64,000 bases of DNA from an uncultured delta proteobacterium (GTDB lineage Bacteria > Myxococcota_A > Polyangia > Polyangiales > B10-G4). Numbering within the stretch: position 1 is the first letter of the stretch; each line of letters begins with the position of its first letter. The notes under the pieces are model-generated. The model saw nothing but the letters and a program-made list of their open reading frames with translations, was not told where the DNA came from and ran no database searches. A program made the translations under genes and the position numbers. This document shows positions 6,383-14,930 of the stretch, one piece after another. Location of the stretch: assembly GCA_963727445.1 (NCBI GenBank), contig CAVSGI010000014.1:160001-224000 (forward strand), in the 5' to 3' direction.

Positions 6383-8407
6383 TCACCCCTCGCGCGACAG
6401 CATCTGTGCCTGGCGATCGACCATCGCCTGCACCTCGTCCTCGGCCATGCCGCCGACCAGCTTGATGCGAACGCTCTGTTCGCGGCCGGTCTCGAGATCC
6501 TTGGCGCGAACGCCGAGCGTTCCGTCGGCGCTGATCTCGAAGGTGACGCCGATCTGCACCTTGCCCCGCGGCGCAGCGCGAAGGCCCGCGAGCTCGATCT
6601 CACCGAGGCCCTGGTTGTCGTCGAGGCGGCGCGACTCGCCCTGAAAGATGCGGACGCGGACGATGCGCTGATTGTCCTGCGCGGTGGAGAAGATGCGCGT
6701 CTGCTCGACCGGGATGGCCGCGTTGCGCTTGATCACCGACTCGCAAAAGCCGCCCACGGTCTCGATGCCCAGGCTGTGAGGCGTGACGTCGAGGAGCAGC
6801 GGCATCGACGGCTCGGGCGGCGCGCTCACCACCGCGGCCGACAGATCGGGCATCGGCAGATCGGGCGGCTCGAGGCTTTCGAGCTCGAGCTCCGGCTCGA
6901 TCTCGGGCTCCACCGGGCGGTCGGGCGCGAAAGCAGGGCCGGCGGGGAGCGGGCCCACGCGAGAGGAGCCGAAGGAGGGCAGCGGTGGAGGCGGCGGCGC
7001 GTGCGCGAAAGCCGGCCCCTCGAGGGTCGTGGCGCCGGGGCTCTTCGCTCGCTGTGGAACCGGCGGGGGGCCGCCGGGCGAGGCCGGTTGCGACTGATAG
7101 CGCTGGGTCTTGTCCGGCTCGAGGTTCACCGCGGTGTCGCCGTCGAGATCGTACTCGGGGTGAACCGAGGCGGTGCGCGGCGGCGGGGTCTCGGAGGGGC
7201 GCTTGAGCTGATCCCGGGTGACCTTCCTGAGGCGGACCCGACCGAGGGCGGCGCGCTCCGCGGGAGCGGTCAGGGCCCGACCCTGAATCGCGGCGCCCTG
7301 CGCCACCACCAGGTCCGGATCGATGTCCTTCATCGGCTCGCGGCCGAAGTACTCGGCGACCATCCGCTGGACGAGGGGCATCCGGGTCGAGCCGCCCACG
7401 AGGATCACGTTGTCGAGCTGGGTCGGCCGGATTCCCGCGACGCGCATCGCGTCCTCGCAGACGTCGAAAGAGCGCGCGATGAGCGGCTGCGCCATCCGCT
7501 CGAGCACCTGGCGCGAGAGCGCGAAGGTCAGGTCGAGGCTGGCGCCTCCGGCACCGTAGGCGAGCTCCTCGATGCGCAGCTGCACCTCGGGCTGCTCGGA
7601 GAGCTGGCACTTCGCCCACTCGGCGGCGGCGCGGAGGCGCTCGTAGGCCTGGGGATCGTCGCGCGGGTCGTAGCGATGATGCTCGAGGAAAGCGTCCGCC
7701 ATCTGCTCGGCGATCAGGACGTCGATGTCGTCACCGCCGAGATAGGTGTCGCCGGCGGTCGCCATCACTTCGAAGACCTCGCCCGACAGCTCGAGCAGGG
7801 TCATGTCGAAGGTGCCGCCGCCGAGATCGAAGACCGCGACGCGCTCGCGCGAGCCGCGACCGTAGCCGTAGGCGAGCGCGGCGGCGGTGGGCTCGTTGAG
7901 GATGCGCAGGACGTCCAGGCCCGCGACGCGGCCGGCGGCCTTCGTCGCCGAGCGCTGGAGCTCGTTGAAATTGGCGGGGACCGTGACCACCGCCCGGGTG
8001 CAGGGCTCGGCCACGTTGTACTCGGCCACGCTGCGCACCTGGCGCAGCACGAAGGCGCTGATCTCGCTCAGGGTGTAGGTCTCACCGCGCGCCCCCACCA
8101 GCACGCCGCCGGTGGGTCCGGCGCTCAGCTCGAAAGGGAAACGCTCCTGGGCGGTGCGCACCTCCGGGCTCCGAAAGGGGCGCCCGATGAGCCGCTTGAC
8201 CGAATAGATCGTGTTCCTGGCGTCGAGGAGGCGCCGGTCGCGCGCCGCGCGCCCGACGAGGATGTCGCCCGAGGGATGGAAGCTGACCACCGACGGGATC
8301 AGCTGATAGCCGTCGGGATCGGCCAGAACGCGCGCGCGACGGCCGTCGGCGACGGCGACGACGGAGTTGGTCGTTCCGAGATCGATACCGAGGACGGGGG
8401 CAACCAC
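6383..8407 (-). CDS. Hsp70/DnaK-family paralogue with long Pro-rich insertion and truncated lid
   Basis: [59 protein letters not shown]; start GTG 8407 or TTG 8416. Confidence 0.9.
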
Positions 8408-8544
8408 GGGGGCCAAGGGTACCCCCTGGACGGGGGCCCGTCAGCTTGCTTGTCACGTGTCCATCACGGGGCTGGCGCACGGCGATTTGGGCGTCATGAT
8501 GAAGACGAGTGGCATCGGATCGTCAGGCGGTTTCAGACGACAGA

Positions 8545-9405: not shown

Positions 9406-9797
9406 AGGGTGTCGCGCGCGCGGCTCGCTGCGCGCGTCGCGTCCGCCGTGCGCGGGATACTCGTTTCGCTGCGCTCACTCAGTTTGAGATGGGGGGGTGG
9501 CGTGCGCGCGTTTCGCTGCGCTCACGCGCTTGCGGGGTCGCTGGGCAGGGGGCCGGAGAGGTTTAATTGTAGTCGGGGCTCCGCCCCAACACCCCGGGGG
9601 GGACAAGCCCCCCGTCGCCTCGCGCTTCGCGCTCGGCTCTCACGGCTGCCCGCCCGGTGTGGAACAGATGGGCTCGCCGTACTCATTGGCAATGAGCTGA
9701 TGGTCTGCGGGCAGCGTTCGCCCCCCCCTCGGCGCCTGCGGCGCCGAGTCGCGGCCTGGCGGCCGCTCCGCTACCGGGGCCAACGGGCGGGGCCAAC

Positions 9798-10084
9798 GGG
9801 GACGGTCTACACTTTTAAACTTTCGTTCCGCCCCCTCGAGGACGGCCAACGGGGACGGTCTACACTTTTAAACTTTCGTTCCGCCCCCTCGGGTTCCATC
9901 GCGCATGCGCGCGGCCCAGCGAAAGTTGAAAAGTGTAGACCGTCCCCATCAAGCGCTCGTAACCCTGACGACCCGGGCGGGGCCAACGGGGACGGTCTAC
10001 ACTTTTAAACTTTCGTTCCGCCCCCTCGGGTTCCATCGCGCATGCGCGCGGCCCAGCGAAAGTTGAAAAGTGTAGACCGTCCCC
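9798..10084. repeat. Cluster 1 of the 97-bp inverted-repeat element: solo arm 9798-9825 and full elements 9851-9947 and 9988-10084 (137-bp tandem period)
   Basis: Arms GGGGACGGTCTACACTTTTAAACTTTCG / CGAAAGTTGAAAAGTGTAGACCGTCCCC read directly. Confidence 0.92.
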
Positions 10085-10243
10085 ATCAAGCGCTCGTAAC
10101 CCTGACGACCCGGGCGCCGTCAGGCGCCCGCGACCGCCTACCGCCTCGACAAGACCCCCACCATCAACTGCACGAGCGCAGCGAAGCGCGCTCGCCGCCG
10201 CCCGCCTCCGCCTCGCCAAGACCCGCGTCACCACCCCAACACG

Positions 10244-10777: not shown

Positions 10778-13423
10778 CTAGCCCTCGTCGGTCTCGTCCG
10801 GCGGGACGTCGTCGTCCTCGGGCGGGTCCTCCGCGGTGGCCGGCGGGACCGTGCTCGCCGGGGGAGGCGAGACGAGGCCGGTGTCGTCGTCCGGGTCTTC
10901 GACCTCCACCGGCTCGACGTCCACGACCTTTTCGCCTTCGTTGAGCCGAATGACACGCACGCCCTGGGTGTTGCGGCCCGCCACGCGGATCTCCGAGACG
11001 CGCGTCCGGATGACCTGGCCGCCGTCCGTGATCACCACGAGCTGATCGTCCGGTCGCACCAGGCGGAGCTTCACCATCGGCCCGTTTCGCTCCGAACAGT
11101 CGATGGCGATGATGCCCTTGCCGCCGCGGTTCTGCGGCCGGTGCTCTTCGACCTCGGTGCGCTTGCCGTAGCCGTGCTCGCTGACGGTGAGCACCTGCTG
11201 GGTGTCGTCCTCGATGACGTCCATGCCGACGACCTCGTCGCCTTCGCGCAGGTCGATGCCCTTCACGCCGCGCGAGTCGCGGCCCATGGCGCGCACGTCT
11301 TCGACGTCGAAGCGGATGCTCATCCCGTTCTTGGTGCCGAGGATGACGTGCTGCCCCGCGGTCACCACGCGCGCGGAGAGGAGCTCGTCGTCGTCGGCGA
11401 TGGCCACTCCGATGATGCCCGTCTGCCGCACCTTCGCGTAGGCCGAGAGCTCGGTGCGCTTCACCCTGCCGCCCTTGGTGCAGGTGAGCAGGAACGCGTC
11501 GTCGGCGAACTCCTGCACCGGCACGATCGCCGCGATGGTGTCGGTGGGATCCATCCCGACGAAGTTCACGATGTTTCGACCGCGTGCCGTCCGTGACCCG
11601 GAGGGGATGTGATAGACCTTCTTCAGGTACACGGTCCCCTTGTCGTTCAGGAAGAGCACGTGGGCGTGCGTGTTCGCGACGAAGACCGAGCTGATGAAGT
11701 CCTCGTCGTGCGTGTCCATGGCGCGCAGGCCCTTGCCGCCGCGCCCCTGGGCTCGGTACTCGCCCAGCTGAACGCGCTTGATGTAGCCCTGGTGGCTCAC
11801 CGTCACGACGACGTCCTCGTCCGCGATCAGGTCTTCGATCGAGATGTCGCCTTCGGCCTGGACGATCTCGGTGCGCCGCTCGTCCCCGTAGCGCTCGCGC
11901 ACCTCGAGGAGCTCACCCGTGATGACCTCCATCAGTCGCTCGTCGGAGCCGAGGATCTCGCGCAGGCTCGCGATGAGATCGCAGATCTGCCCGTATTCGG
12001 TGGCGAGCTTCTCGCGCTCGAGGCCGGTCAGCCGTGCGAGGCGCATGTCGAGGATGGCCTTGGCCTGCCGCTCGCTCAGGAAGTAGTCGCCCTTCGCCTT
12101 CGCCTCTTCGATCTCCGACTCGGGCCGGCCCGCCCGGCGCACGAAGTCCTCGAGGCCCTTCAGCGGCAGCTTCATCAGCTTCTCGCGCGCCTCCTCGGGA
12201 TCCTGCGACTTGCGGATGGTGTCGACCACCAGATCGACCTCGGTCACCGCCATGCCGAGACCTTCGACGAGCTCCTGCTGCGCGAGCGCCTGGCGCAATT
12301 CGTAGCGCGTGCGGCGAAGCACCACCTCGCGGCGGTGGACGATGAAGTGCTCGAGCGTCTCCTTGAGGTTCAGGAGCTTCGGCTGACCGTTGACGATGGC
12401 CAGCATGTTCACGCCGAAGGTGCTCTGCAGCGGCGTCATCTGATAGAGCGAGTTGAGGACGATCTCGCCGTGCGCGTCCTTCTTCAGCTCGATGACGATG
12501 CGCATCCCGCTGCGATCGGACTCGTCGCGAATGTCGCTGACGCCCTCGAGTCGCTTCTCCCGGACGAGCGCGGCGATCTTCTTGAGCGTCTCGGCCTTGT
12601 TCACCTGATACGGGATCTCGGTGATGATGATCTGCTCGCGATTCGACTTGCCCTTCATCTCCTGGATGTCGGCGCGCGCGCGCATCACCACCCGGCCGCG
12701 GCCGGTGTGCAGGCCCTGGCGGATCCCCGAGGTGCCGTAGATGAAGCCCGCGGTGGGGAAGTCGGGCCCCTTCACACCGAGGCGACCCTGATCATCGTCG
12801 ACCATCAGCTGATCGATCGTGAGCGTCGGGTCCTCGATCAGGCGGATGGTCGCGTCGATGATCTCGCGCAGGTTGTGCGGCGGGACGTTCGTCGCCATGC
12901 CGACCGCGATGCCGCCCGAGCCGTTGACGAGAAGATTCGGGAAGCGGCTCGGCAAGACGAGCGGCTCGTGCTCGGAGTCGTCGTAGTTCGGACCGAAGTC
13001 GACGGTCTCCTTCTCGATGTCGGCGAGCAGCTCCGAGGTGAGCCGCGACATCCGCACCTCGGTGTAACGCATGGCCGCGGCGGGGTCGCCGTCGACGGAG
13101 CCGAAGTTCCCCTGGCCGTCGACCAGCGGGTAGCGCATGGCGAAGTCCTGCGCCATGCGCACCAGCGCGTCGTAGACGGCCTGGTCACCGTGCGGGTGGT
13201 ACTTGCCGAGGACGTCGCCGACGATGCGGGCGCTCTTCTTGTAGGAAGTGTTCCAGCGAACCCCCTGCTCGTGCATCGTGTACAGGATCCGACGATGGAC
13301 GGGCTTGAGCCCGTCGCGCACGTCCGGGATCGCGCGCCCGATGATGACGGACATCGCGTAGTCGAGATACGAACGGCGCATCTCGTCTTCGATGGTGACT
13401 GGGAGCTTTTGGGACTCGGCCAT
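10778..13423 (-). CDS. gyrA: DNA gyrase subunit A
   Basis: [25 protein letters not shown], catalytic AAMRYTE, GyrA-box QGRGGKG, C-terminal pinwheel repeats, acidic tail. Confidence 0.97.
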
Positions 13424-13443
13424 GTGGGCTCTGGCCCTATCAC

Positions 13444-13503
13444 GCCTCGCGCGCGCGCGCACGCGCGTACGCACGCGCGCGCGTACGCGCGCGTGCGCGA
13501 GGC
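13444..13503. promoter_or_regulatory. Alternating purine-pyrimidine, self-complementary tract upstream of gyrA (Z-DNA/cruciform-prone)
   Basis: 13448-13499 alternates Y/R without a break for 52 bp; ends GCCTCGCGC / GCGCGAGGC are inverted repeats; regulatory role is inferred. Confidence 0.6.
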
Positions 13504-13636
13504 CCCGCCTGGCAACGTCGTTTCCACCCCCGCCAACTGAGTTGATGGCTGTGGGGCCCGATGGGATTGGAAAAGCCAGTCATTCCCATCGACTCATCCT
13601 CGGCACCACCCTTGCGTGGTAGTCTGCCGGGGAAGC

Positions 13637-13984
13637 ATGCCCATGAACCGTTTCAGCCTCTCGATCGTCCTCATCGCGGCTCTCGCCGTGGGATCGAGCG
13701 CCGTGGGATGCGCCACCCCGACCCTTCCCCTTCCGCCTCCAGCAGCCCTGACAGCCGGCCCGCCGGACGCCGACGGCATCGTCACCATCCGTGGCGAGTC
13801 GCTGGCCGAAGCCTACGTCTTCTGCCTCAATCTGGACTTGGATGCGGGCGTCATCGTCCGCGCCGATACCGACGGCAACTTCACCTGCCAACCGCGGGCC
13901 GAAGTGGGGAATTACGTCAGTGTTTGGCAGGAGTTGGGGTCCGACAGCGGCCCCCCACTGGAGATCCGCATTCCCGCCCCCTGA
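13637..13984 (+). CDS. Small lipoprotein, Ig-like/carboxypeptidase-regulatory-like
   Basis: Signal peptide and lipobox AVGC followed by TPTLPLPPP. Confidence 0.65.
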   Translation: MPMNRFSLSIVLIAALAVGSSAVGCATPTLPLPPPAALTAGPPDADGIVTIRGESLAEAYVFCLNLDLDAGVIVRADTDGNFTCQPRAEVGNYVSVWQELGSDSGPPLEIRIPAP

Positions 13985-14075
13985 ACCACGCGCCGCCAAA
14001 ATCAGCCCACTTCTTTGACCTCGTGTAAGAGGTTGTCCTACATGCGAGTACAGGTAGGCGCTTGTAGGAGGGCTC

Positions 14076-14930
14076 ATGGACACGGCGATGCGGGATCTGG
14101 AGCGACTGGAGGAGCAGGACGATGCTCCCGGGCGGCGAATCGGCACCCTGATGATGGCGGCCCTCGCGACCGTCGGTTTGATCTTCGCGATGGCGATCCT
14201 CCTCGGAGGTACGGGGGAGTCCGAGGTGGAGGCCCAGGACGATCCCCTCTCGGTGCTCGACCGGGCCGCCGGCTTCGAGGTCGACGAGGAGGTGCTGCCC
14301 GAGGAGGACGAGGCCCCCGAGGTGGACCGTCGCAATCTGGCCTTTCCCGAGACCCTCGCGGAGTACGACACCCGCCCCGAGGTCGAGGCCGCGCTGGCCG
14401 CCGCGGCGGCCGAGCTCGAGCATCCGGAGCCGATCCCCTCGGGTGTAGCCCTCGGAGACATCGCCTCGGGCAGCATCGAGGACGCGCCGGTCCCCTCCCC
14501 CGACGCCCCGCCGATCCGCACCGAGCATCCGGTCGACGACACCCTGCCCTCCGCCCTGCCCGCGGCCTCCGCCTTCGGTGGCACGCCCGAGGTCCTGAGC
14601 CGGGCGCGCGCCCACGATCCGCTGGTCGCCGCCGCGTTCCCGCCCGAAGCCCCTGGCCGTCCCGTCGCCTCCGGCATGAACGGCAAGTACACGATCCAGG
14701 TCATCAGCTATCAGCATCCGACCGACGCCGACGTCTTCGCTCAGGGCCTTCGCGCACGGGGCCATCACGCCTTCGTCGTGTCTGCCGACATCCCAGAGCG
14801 CGGGCGCTTCTATCGCGTTCGCATCGGCCCCTTCGACACCCAGCGTGAAGCGGATGCCTACCGCCACCAGTTCGAAGACGAAGAGCGGATGAACACCATC
14901 GTCATCCGACGCCGAGACGAACGAGGCTGA
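14076..14930 (+). CDS. SPOR-domain membrane protein
   Basis: AGGAGG RBS; N-terminal TM; C-terminal YTIQVISY...FYRVRIGPF SPOR signature. Confidence 0.85.
   Translation: MDTAMRDLERLEEQDDAPGRRIGTLMMAALATVGLIFAMAILLGGTGESEVEAQDDPLSVLDRAAGFEVDEEVLPEEDEAPEVDRRNLAFPETLAEYDTRPEVEAALAAAAAELEHPEPIPSGVALGDIASGSIEDAPVPSPDAPPIRTEHPVDDTLPSALPAASAFGGTPEVLSRARAHDPLVAAAFPPEAPGRPVASGMNGKYTIQVISYQHPTDADVFAQGLRARGHHAFVVSADIPERGRFYRVRIGPFDTQREADAYRHQFEDEERMNTIVIRRRDERG

Follow-up and report, generated by a model that had tools for sequence, protein, structure and literature searches.

An alternating pyrimidine–purine tract across the predicted −35 element of gyrA in a myxobacterial order: a candidate supercoiling-driven B-to-Z switch

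The window, that is, the whole analyzed stretch of 64,000 nucleotides, corresponds to C14:160001-224000, part of a contig from an assembly of 9.47 Mb with 68.8% GC and 86% completeness. The gene for subunit A of DNA gyrase, gyrA, lies here on the minus strand, and the divergent intergenic gap separating it from a small lipoprotein-like gene is the setting of a 52-bp tract in which pyrimidines and purines alternate without interruption (Table 1). The initial annotation had pointed out this alternation, its distance of 24 nt from the gyrA ATG in a divergent intergenic region, and the ability of the 60-nt span to fold back on itself with 17 terminal pairs, including one G–T. All these observations were recovered: the alternation at 13448-13499 was reproduced both from the sequence and by a script, the A of the ATG is at 13423, leaving 24 nt before the tract, and the fold-back is present as described.

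Table 1. Features of the gyrA locus and of the adjacent divergent gene (window coordinates).
Feature	Position	Strand	Comment
gyrA, DNA gyrase subunit A	10778..13423	-	GyrA above both NCBIfam cut-offs
Predicted extended −10, TG-A-TAGGGC	13434..13442	-	Hexamer 13434-13439; assigned by position; last base C, mostly T in relatives
Alternating pyrimidine–purine tract, 52 bp	13448..13499	.	26 dimers: 21 CG, 3 CA/TG, 2 TA
Predicted −35 hexamer, GTGCGC	13457..13462	-	Inside the tract, 17 bp from −10
Two CAAC-N3-GTTG-type palindromes, 21 bp apart	13513..13544	.	13513-13523 degenerate, 13534-13544 perfect
Predicted extended −10 of the divergent gene, TG-G-TAGTCT	13617..13625	+	Putative; read from the sequence, same motif as in relatives
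Small lipoprotein-like divergent gene	13637..13984	+	No NCBIfam or Pfam family

The claim that the window holds nothing of comparable length stands, the runner-up being 15 bp long. The same is true of the whole 9.47-Mb assembly, where the second longest alternating run is 23 bp, 33 runs fall between 18 and 23 bp, and the 52-bp tract is the only one of at least 24 bp; runs of 18 bp were observed in five out of 6109 rough gene-upstream windows of the same genome. Moreover, in a simplified Z-DNA model applied genome-wide, the tract ranks first among 5308 sites under the cut-off (0.0340 vs. 0.0361 for the next site). Thus, similar tracts are not common at unrelated sites of this genome. Assignment of the tract to dispersed repeats or simple microsatellites as a class was considered and rejected, as it is single in the genome and consists of mixed dimers with no fixed period. 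An assembly artifact is unlikely because relatives carry the same feature, but single letters may be wrong, since gyrB and topA match as several frameshifted pieces in the same assembly (G000 C13:271923-274352 and C2:208909-210981, respectively), which suggests indel errors.

Two other features of the window may be mentioned. Positions 9784-10116 hold an intergenic miniature inverted-repeat element with 35-nt inverted arms starting with GGGG and a perfect 136-nt tandem duplication, each copy having a 14-bp alternating core; an 18-mer of the arm is found 154 times in the genome, and presumably the element is akin to repeats of the REP or MITE type. Positions 6383-8416 encode a DnaK-like protein that carries a long proline-rich insertion and scores below the NCBIfam cut-offs.

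To the other side of the gap, positions 13637-14930 contain the lipoprotein-like gene with the PTLPLPPP motif followed by a gene for a SPOR-domain protein, and this pair adjoins gyrA in many families of the order; by eye, similar divergent neighbors are seen in many relatives. In many genomes of family f17, gyrA is instead located behind a same-strand gene whose product ends with FTIGNFF and which we take to be BamA-like. According to rough frame calls, the neighbor is divergent at 32 out of 34 tract-bearing and 50 out of 80 tract-less loci for which it could be called, and divergent orientation as the cause of the tract was rejected, as most tract-less loci share it. The two CAAC-N3-GTTG palindromes upstream of the tract are likely to be a protein-binding site. 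Such boxes, often paired at a distance of 21–22 bp and located 36–153 bp upstream of the gyrA −10, are conserved at most gyrA loci of families f1, f3, and f22 and at some loci of f9, f14, and f16; a perfect copy is present in 18 out of 20 tract-bearing f22 genomes and in 11 out of 12 tract-less f3 genomes. The window's own genome has only 20 perfect copies and two double sites; a CAAC-box regulon was considered and dropped, the single further double site being located beside a frame with no identity. By eye, many tracts in several f9, f14, and f22 genomes are flanked by a short ATACCT/CACCT-type motif and then CT- or AT-rich bases, a combination also seen before topA.

The position of the tract relative to two conserved promoter-like motifs follows from comparison of the gyrA upstream regions. 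Relatives share the pattern xTGCxx-17-TAnnnT, extended by TG, and in the window the −10 ends with C. In a search with the RTGNTAS motif, the unspecified last position of the −10 was T in 73 out of 89 motif-bearing genomes (of 165 searched). Upstream of rough gene calls in the window's own genome, the T-ending motif favors the sense strand (105 sense vs. 39 antisense), and the motif ending with other bases has no such bias (142 vs. 155). The xTGCxx motif is found exactly 17 bp upstream of the −10 in 41 out of 76 genomes (nine at the next best spacing), namely, 16 out of 34 with the tract, four out of five intermediate, and 21 out of 37 without the tract. Of 16 tracts covering the place of the −35, 15 have TG as the dimer there, while CG prevails elsewhere in the tracts; hence the predicted −35 appears to be written into the tract. 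Overall, 34 out of 40 tracts could be placed relative to the −35: 25 overlap the hexamer, five are wholly upstream, and four follow the −10. Discriminators are equally GC-rich with the tract (96%) and without it (95%).

In coordinates of the predicted gyrA promoter, the window's tract extends approximately from −21 to −72. Only 10 nt separate the predicted −10 from the ATG of gyrA, the gyrase gene that this tract-bearing promoter would control, and therefore the gyrA mRNA, with its start expected near 13427, is predicted to be nearly leaderless; the tract, being upstream of the predicted −10 and covering the −35, would remain outside the mRNA. By eye, tRNA promoters of this genome have TTGAC-type −35 and TAnnnT. 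A scan of the region with the Escherichia coli consensus yielded no match, and no publication on a myxobacterial promoter consensus was found in the open full-text literature. Among 14 sequencing runs screened for the stretch, the word share did not exceed 0.06 (6%) in any. The coverage of the predicted −35 hexamer strengthens the Z-DNA branch of the initial annotation, which had proposed a structural feedback switch damping gyrA expression in over-supercoiled DNA.

In order to assess conservation, gyrA loci were collected from 170 genomes of the order; five loci with less than 150 nt upstream were dropped, yielding 165, and the unpublished genome G122 was left out, entering only pooled tallies such as the genome-wide count of 30-bp runs given below. 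Alternating runs of at least 18 bp occur in the 250 nt preceding gyrA in 40 out of 165 genomes, belonging to 22 genera and 10 out of 22 families, compared to one out of 1447 control stretches of this length taken elsewhere from these loci, and thus the tract is not absent from orthologous loci. It is near-universal in family f22 (20 out of 26 genomes), patchy in f9 (six out of 30) and f7 (four out of eight), and was not found at this threshold in f17 (none out of 35) or f3 (none out of 12). The lengths range from 18 to 54 bp, and the dimers vary (summed over the 40 tracts, CG accounts for 400 out of 553, TG for 75, CA for 41, and TA for 37), in line with the expectation that the alternation rather than the exact letters should be conserved. 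The dimer phase is kept in eight out of nine split tracts, which point substitution alone would also produce. In all 14 genomes where the gyrA tract reaches 30 bp, it is the sole run of at least 30 bp in the genome (in a genome-wide count, runs of 30 bp anywhere were found in 87 out of 401 genomes); at a threshold of 22 bp, the gyrase tract is one of two to at least 13 sites in nine out of 10 genomes searched.

The 40 tract-bearing genomes are not independent, since tract presence changes nine times, at least four of them forced, on a quick GyrA tree of 83 out of 165 genomes, those with at least 420 amino acids. Long retention of the tract suggests selection, because (CG)14 is unstable in bacteria (PMC2425487, in part; here and below, sources so marked are cited for the sections covered). 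At the same time, the tract is dispensable, as 125 out of 165 genomes, including close relatives with the same −35/−10 and a discriminator of 95% GC, have no 18-bp run. We regard the alternating tract as a real and selected-looking feature and its function as a proposal.

Outside the order, within the same phylum, a gyrA run of at least 15 bp was observed in seven out of 77 genomes and one of at least 18 bp in three; by eye, these tracts precede the −35, occupy the spacer, or follow the −10. In G448 (L500), G464 (L489), G489 (L490), and G511 (L522), which belong to other classes of this phylum, the gyrA tract fills the −35/−10 spacer or lies just upstream of a TTGAC-type −35, again by eye. None of 70 named non-myxobacterial gyrA loci has an 18-bp run, and two have runs of 15–16 bp. 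A metagenome scan with a pattern comprising the tract and a −10-like motif yielded, among the matches listed, gyrA at three out of 111 loci and no gyrB, most other loci looking by eye like eukaryotic microsatellites or unrelated DNA, and the scan is weak as a reverse test. A wider class of Z-controlled genes was sought and not found: out of 32 other runs of at least 22 bp that were inspected, 19 are inside GC3-biased frames, and no neighbor gene recurs, by eye. One 27-bp alternating run, L659:990-1016 (G014), lies close to where a frame for a D5-like primase ends (matches to Pox_D5 and DUF5906), probably in a mobile element.

Other topoisomerase genes were considered as well. Upstream of gyrB, a run of at least 15 bp is present in seven out of 83 genomes, all six examined genomes of genus g7 and one f22 genome, and 76 have none; for gyrB of the window's own genome, no run as long as 9 bp lies within 300 nt. 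In the g7 genomes, the gyrB run begins 12–14 nt past a −10 that follows a TTGC-type −35, by eye, and in four g7 genomes the gyrA tract is likewise downstream of the −10. In the topA control, runs of at least 15 bp were found in four out of 52 loci, located within the upstream reading frame in three cases and intergenic in one; topA often closely follows another gene and may lack a promoter of its own. The intergenic case is that of G050 (L046 / L620), where the gap before topA contains a 32-bp alternating tract and a 12-bp run, and both gyrA and gyrB of this genome are devoid of any.

The propensity of the tract for the B-to-Z transition was estimated by two models. Dimer energies for a single-run Z model were taken from Table 1 of PMC3024258 (in part), with a nucleation cost of 10 kcal. 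A junction pair is reported to take 0.7 turn (PMC10783518, in part). With real flanking DNA, a two-run equilibrium model places the Z midpoint at sigma of about −0.028, −0.032, and −0.039 for domains of 10, 5, and 2.5 kb, respectively. The model constants were 2220RT/N for supercoiling and 0.4 turn for junction twist, and unconstrained supercoiling in bacteria is about −0.025 to −0.035. The models consider the B-to-Z transition alone, leaving aside melting, Z–Z junctions, and bound proteins. The segment predicted to flip first, 13449-13482, contains the −35. As expected of a Z-forming element, the tract is a long CG-rich alternation predicted to flip at moderate supercoiling, outcompeting its neighbors. 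The tract ends provide a further indication. The base beside a C-starting end is T at 46 out of 61 ends and, with one genome per genus, at 26 out of 33 (p = 0.0006), against 91 out of 199 in the background, with the limitation that promoter flanks have 39–43% AT and the background, from one genome, 31%. This bias matches the extrusion of an A–T pair at B–Z junctions (PMC6212838, in part), though the promoter flanks are richer in AT.

Taking all this into account, we lean, by a modest margin, toward the tract across the predicted −35 being a supercoiling-driven B-to-Z switch through which gyrase transcription would fall once negative supercoiling becomes excessive. In the B form, the housekeeping RNA polymerase would read the weak GTGC-type −35 in the tract, the extended −10, and the very GC-rich discriminator. 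Promoters with GC-rich discriminators are typically activated by negative supercoiling (PMC6700405, in part), a response opposite to what gyrase homeostasis requires. Beyond a threshold, at model sigma of about −0.028 to −0.039 depending on the domain size, the tract would flip to Z, so that the −35 would no longer be in the B form and as many as about 10 turns of supercoiling would be taken up beside the −10; less gyrase would then lead to relaxation, and the tract would return to the B form. In this scheme the threshold is computed, and we infer the promoter itself, Z formation in cells, and the repressing sign. That the tract is not tied to one position is easier to reconcile with a structural effect than with a protein site at a set place. 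Several observations speak against the switch: gyrB mostly has no tract, including that of the window's own genome, though both subunits are needed; a 32-bp tract precedes topA, where repression by supercoiling would have the wrong sign; and three quarters of the order manage without the tract. For the tracts placed downstream, the effect may be weak, by analogy with T7 polymerase, only about 4% of which were blocked by Z-DNA met in elongation (PMC2425487, in part). The broader proposal, that of a natural protein-free Z-DNA thermostat, in which the gyrase −35 would be inside a Z-forming tract, the tract length would determine the set-point, and such tracts would have been placed more than once in the phylum at one or the other gyrase gene, gyrA or gyrB (covering the −35, within the spacer, or shortly past the start), seems to us plausible but slightly short of even.

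Other roles of the same tract have to be weighed against the switch. It could flip to Z as a torsional buffer or activator, absorbing supercoils of the divergent promoter pair and keeping a relaxation-preferring gyrA promoter on, or its output even, instead of shutting it off; we find this improbable, although it is the most serious of the alternatives. The predominance of divergent neighbors at tract-bearing loci (32 out of 34), the five tracts out of 34 wholly upstream of the −35, the tract before topA, and the case of E. coli, in which supercoils generated by a divergent promoter inhibit that of gyrA (PMC6170449, in part), agree with buffering. Against it, 50 out of 80 tract-less loci are divergent too, the flip takes in the −35 hexamer in 25 out of 34 cases, which is hard to square with activation, and activation at high supercoiling would constitute a positive feedback. 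Somewhat less probable still is a role in the B form, the tract offering a surface to a protein, which may act jointly with the one that would bind the CAAC-N3-GTTG boxes, or serving as a spacer whose twist or bending is unusual. The conserved palindrome pair just upstream points in this direction, as does the bend around the −10 proposed to be the sensor in E. coli gyrA (PMC6170449, in part); a search of the genome revealed no Z-alpha domain, a weak argument, as the control search was also empty. Such a role is difficult to reconcile with lengths from 18 to 54 bp, varying letters, a placement that is upstream in some cases, in the spacer or downstream in others, and at either gyrA or gyrB, and the presence of CAAC boxes without a tract (11 out of 12 f3 genomes).

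Nor do we see much chance for a neutral microsatellite, with 2-bp slippage having started from GTGCG of the −35 in a GC-rich setting and its product having no function. The −35 itself is alternating, the tract-less genus g9 has a 9-bp run at this place, the distribution is patchy, and other long alternating runs in these genomes include simple repeats and runs inside reading frames (19 out of 32 inspected), all of which slippage would accommodate; however, it leaves unexplained why the gyrA tract is the sole run of at least 30 bp in 14 out of 14 genomes, why tracts also follow the −10 of gyrA and gyrB, where no −35 seed exists, and why mixed, non-periodic dimers keep the alternation; also, 18-bp runs are rare in gene-upstream windows of this genome (five out of 6109). 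The least probable, and in our opinion very doubtful, reading has the fold-back as the functional unit, in the form of a DNA cruciform or, as the initial annotation offered as an alternative, a 5′UTR RNA hairpin controlling translation. The 60-nt span does fold at −36 kcal/mol as DNA (z = −2.1 vs. dinucleotide shuffles), has short complementary flanks, and in genus g7 the tract would be transcribed. Nevertheless, over 40 tracts the real order of dimers folds no better than 150 dimer permutations of each (in 19 out of 40 cases it surpasses the permutation mean, and z averages −0.14), genus means are negative in 11 out of 22 cases, and for the window's own tract z is +0.19, with 52% of 150 permutations folding as well or better. 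In a rough model calibrated on a statement in PMC3834812 (in part), a cruciform needs sigma of −0.045 to −0.066 with mismatch penalties (−0.033 to −0.041 penalty-free), compared to about −0.032 for Z in 5 kb. No Rfam family matches at threshold, the best score being 26 bits vs. 98, with low-complexity matches only, and the tract itself is upstream of the predicted −10. Since the hairpin is no better than that of shuffled dimers, neither branch is supported: the cruciform is left with no sign of selection for pairing and, with mismatch penalties, a higher supercoiling need than Z, and the 5′UTR hairpin with a tract outside the predicted transcript.

The native regulatory role of Z-DNA in bacteria is a long-standing question, and promoter sensing of supercoiling is only partly explained; according to a 2026 review (PMC13463272, in part), direct evidence in vivo that Z-DNA has a role in bacteria is still limited. 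A search of the open full-text literature, covering titles and starts of abstracts, found no description of a natural Z-prone tract at a gyrase promoter, and the main text of a tree-of-life Z-DNA survey (bioRxiv 10.64898/2025.12.30.697008) contains neither "gyr" nor "topoisomerase." In many genomes, the strongest single Z-prone site sits on the promoter of the enzyme that makes supercoiling. If the thermostat proposal holds, chromosomal Z-DNA would gain a native regulatory job in bacteria. The system provides a precise and cheap test, as it comprises one tract, one promoter, a predicted threshold, natural variants of 18–54 bp, and, as controls, tract-less relatives with the same core promoter.

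Related phenomena are known from other systems. Relaxation-stimulated gyrase promoters of E. coli were reportedly described by Menzel and Gellert in 1983, and transcription under supercoiling with (CG)n-type Z inserts is said to have been studied by Peck and Wang in 1985 and by Sheridan, Benham, and Hatfield in 1999. The relaxation-stimulated gyrA and gyrB promoters of E. coli (PMC6170449, in part) resemble the locus described here in being gyrase promoters with a TG-extended −10, and the proposed homeostatic feedback is the same. However, in E. coli gyrA the response has been assigned to some 20 bp surrounding the −10, and a bend is the proposed sensor (PMC6170449, in part), whereas here a 52-bp tract covers the predicted −35 and the response is a proposal; the E. 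coli gyrA promoter, checked in one strain, has the TG-extended −10 and no long alternating run. The placement of the tract is opposite to the bacterial trend, because 5′ flanks of E. coli are reported to be poor in Z-forming sites (PMC10783518, in part). Engineered (CG)n inserts (PMC2425487, in part) share with the tract the CG-rich alternation and similar length, and their supercoiling-dependent inhibition is exerted by a block or by absorption of supercoils; these inserts are artificial, while the tract is natural, conserved, composed of mixed dimers, and located at a gene that sets supercoiling. Finally, eukaryotic promoter-proximal Z-DNA, e.g., that of c-myc (PMC3024258, in part), is also a Z-prone site just upstream of the start, driven by negative supercoiling, but, unlike the tract considered here, it is tied to active transcription in chromatin.
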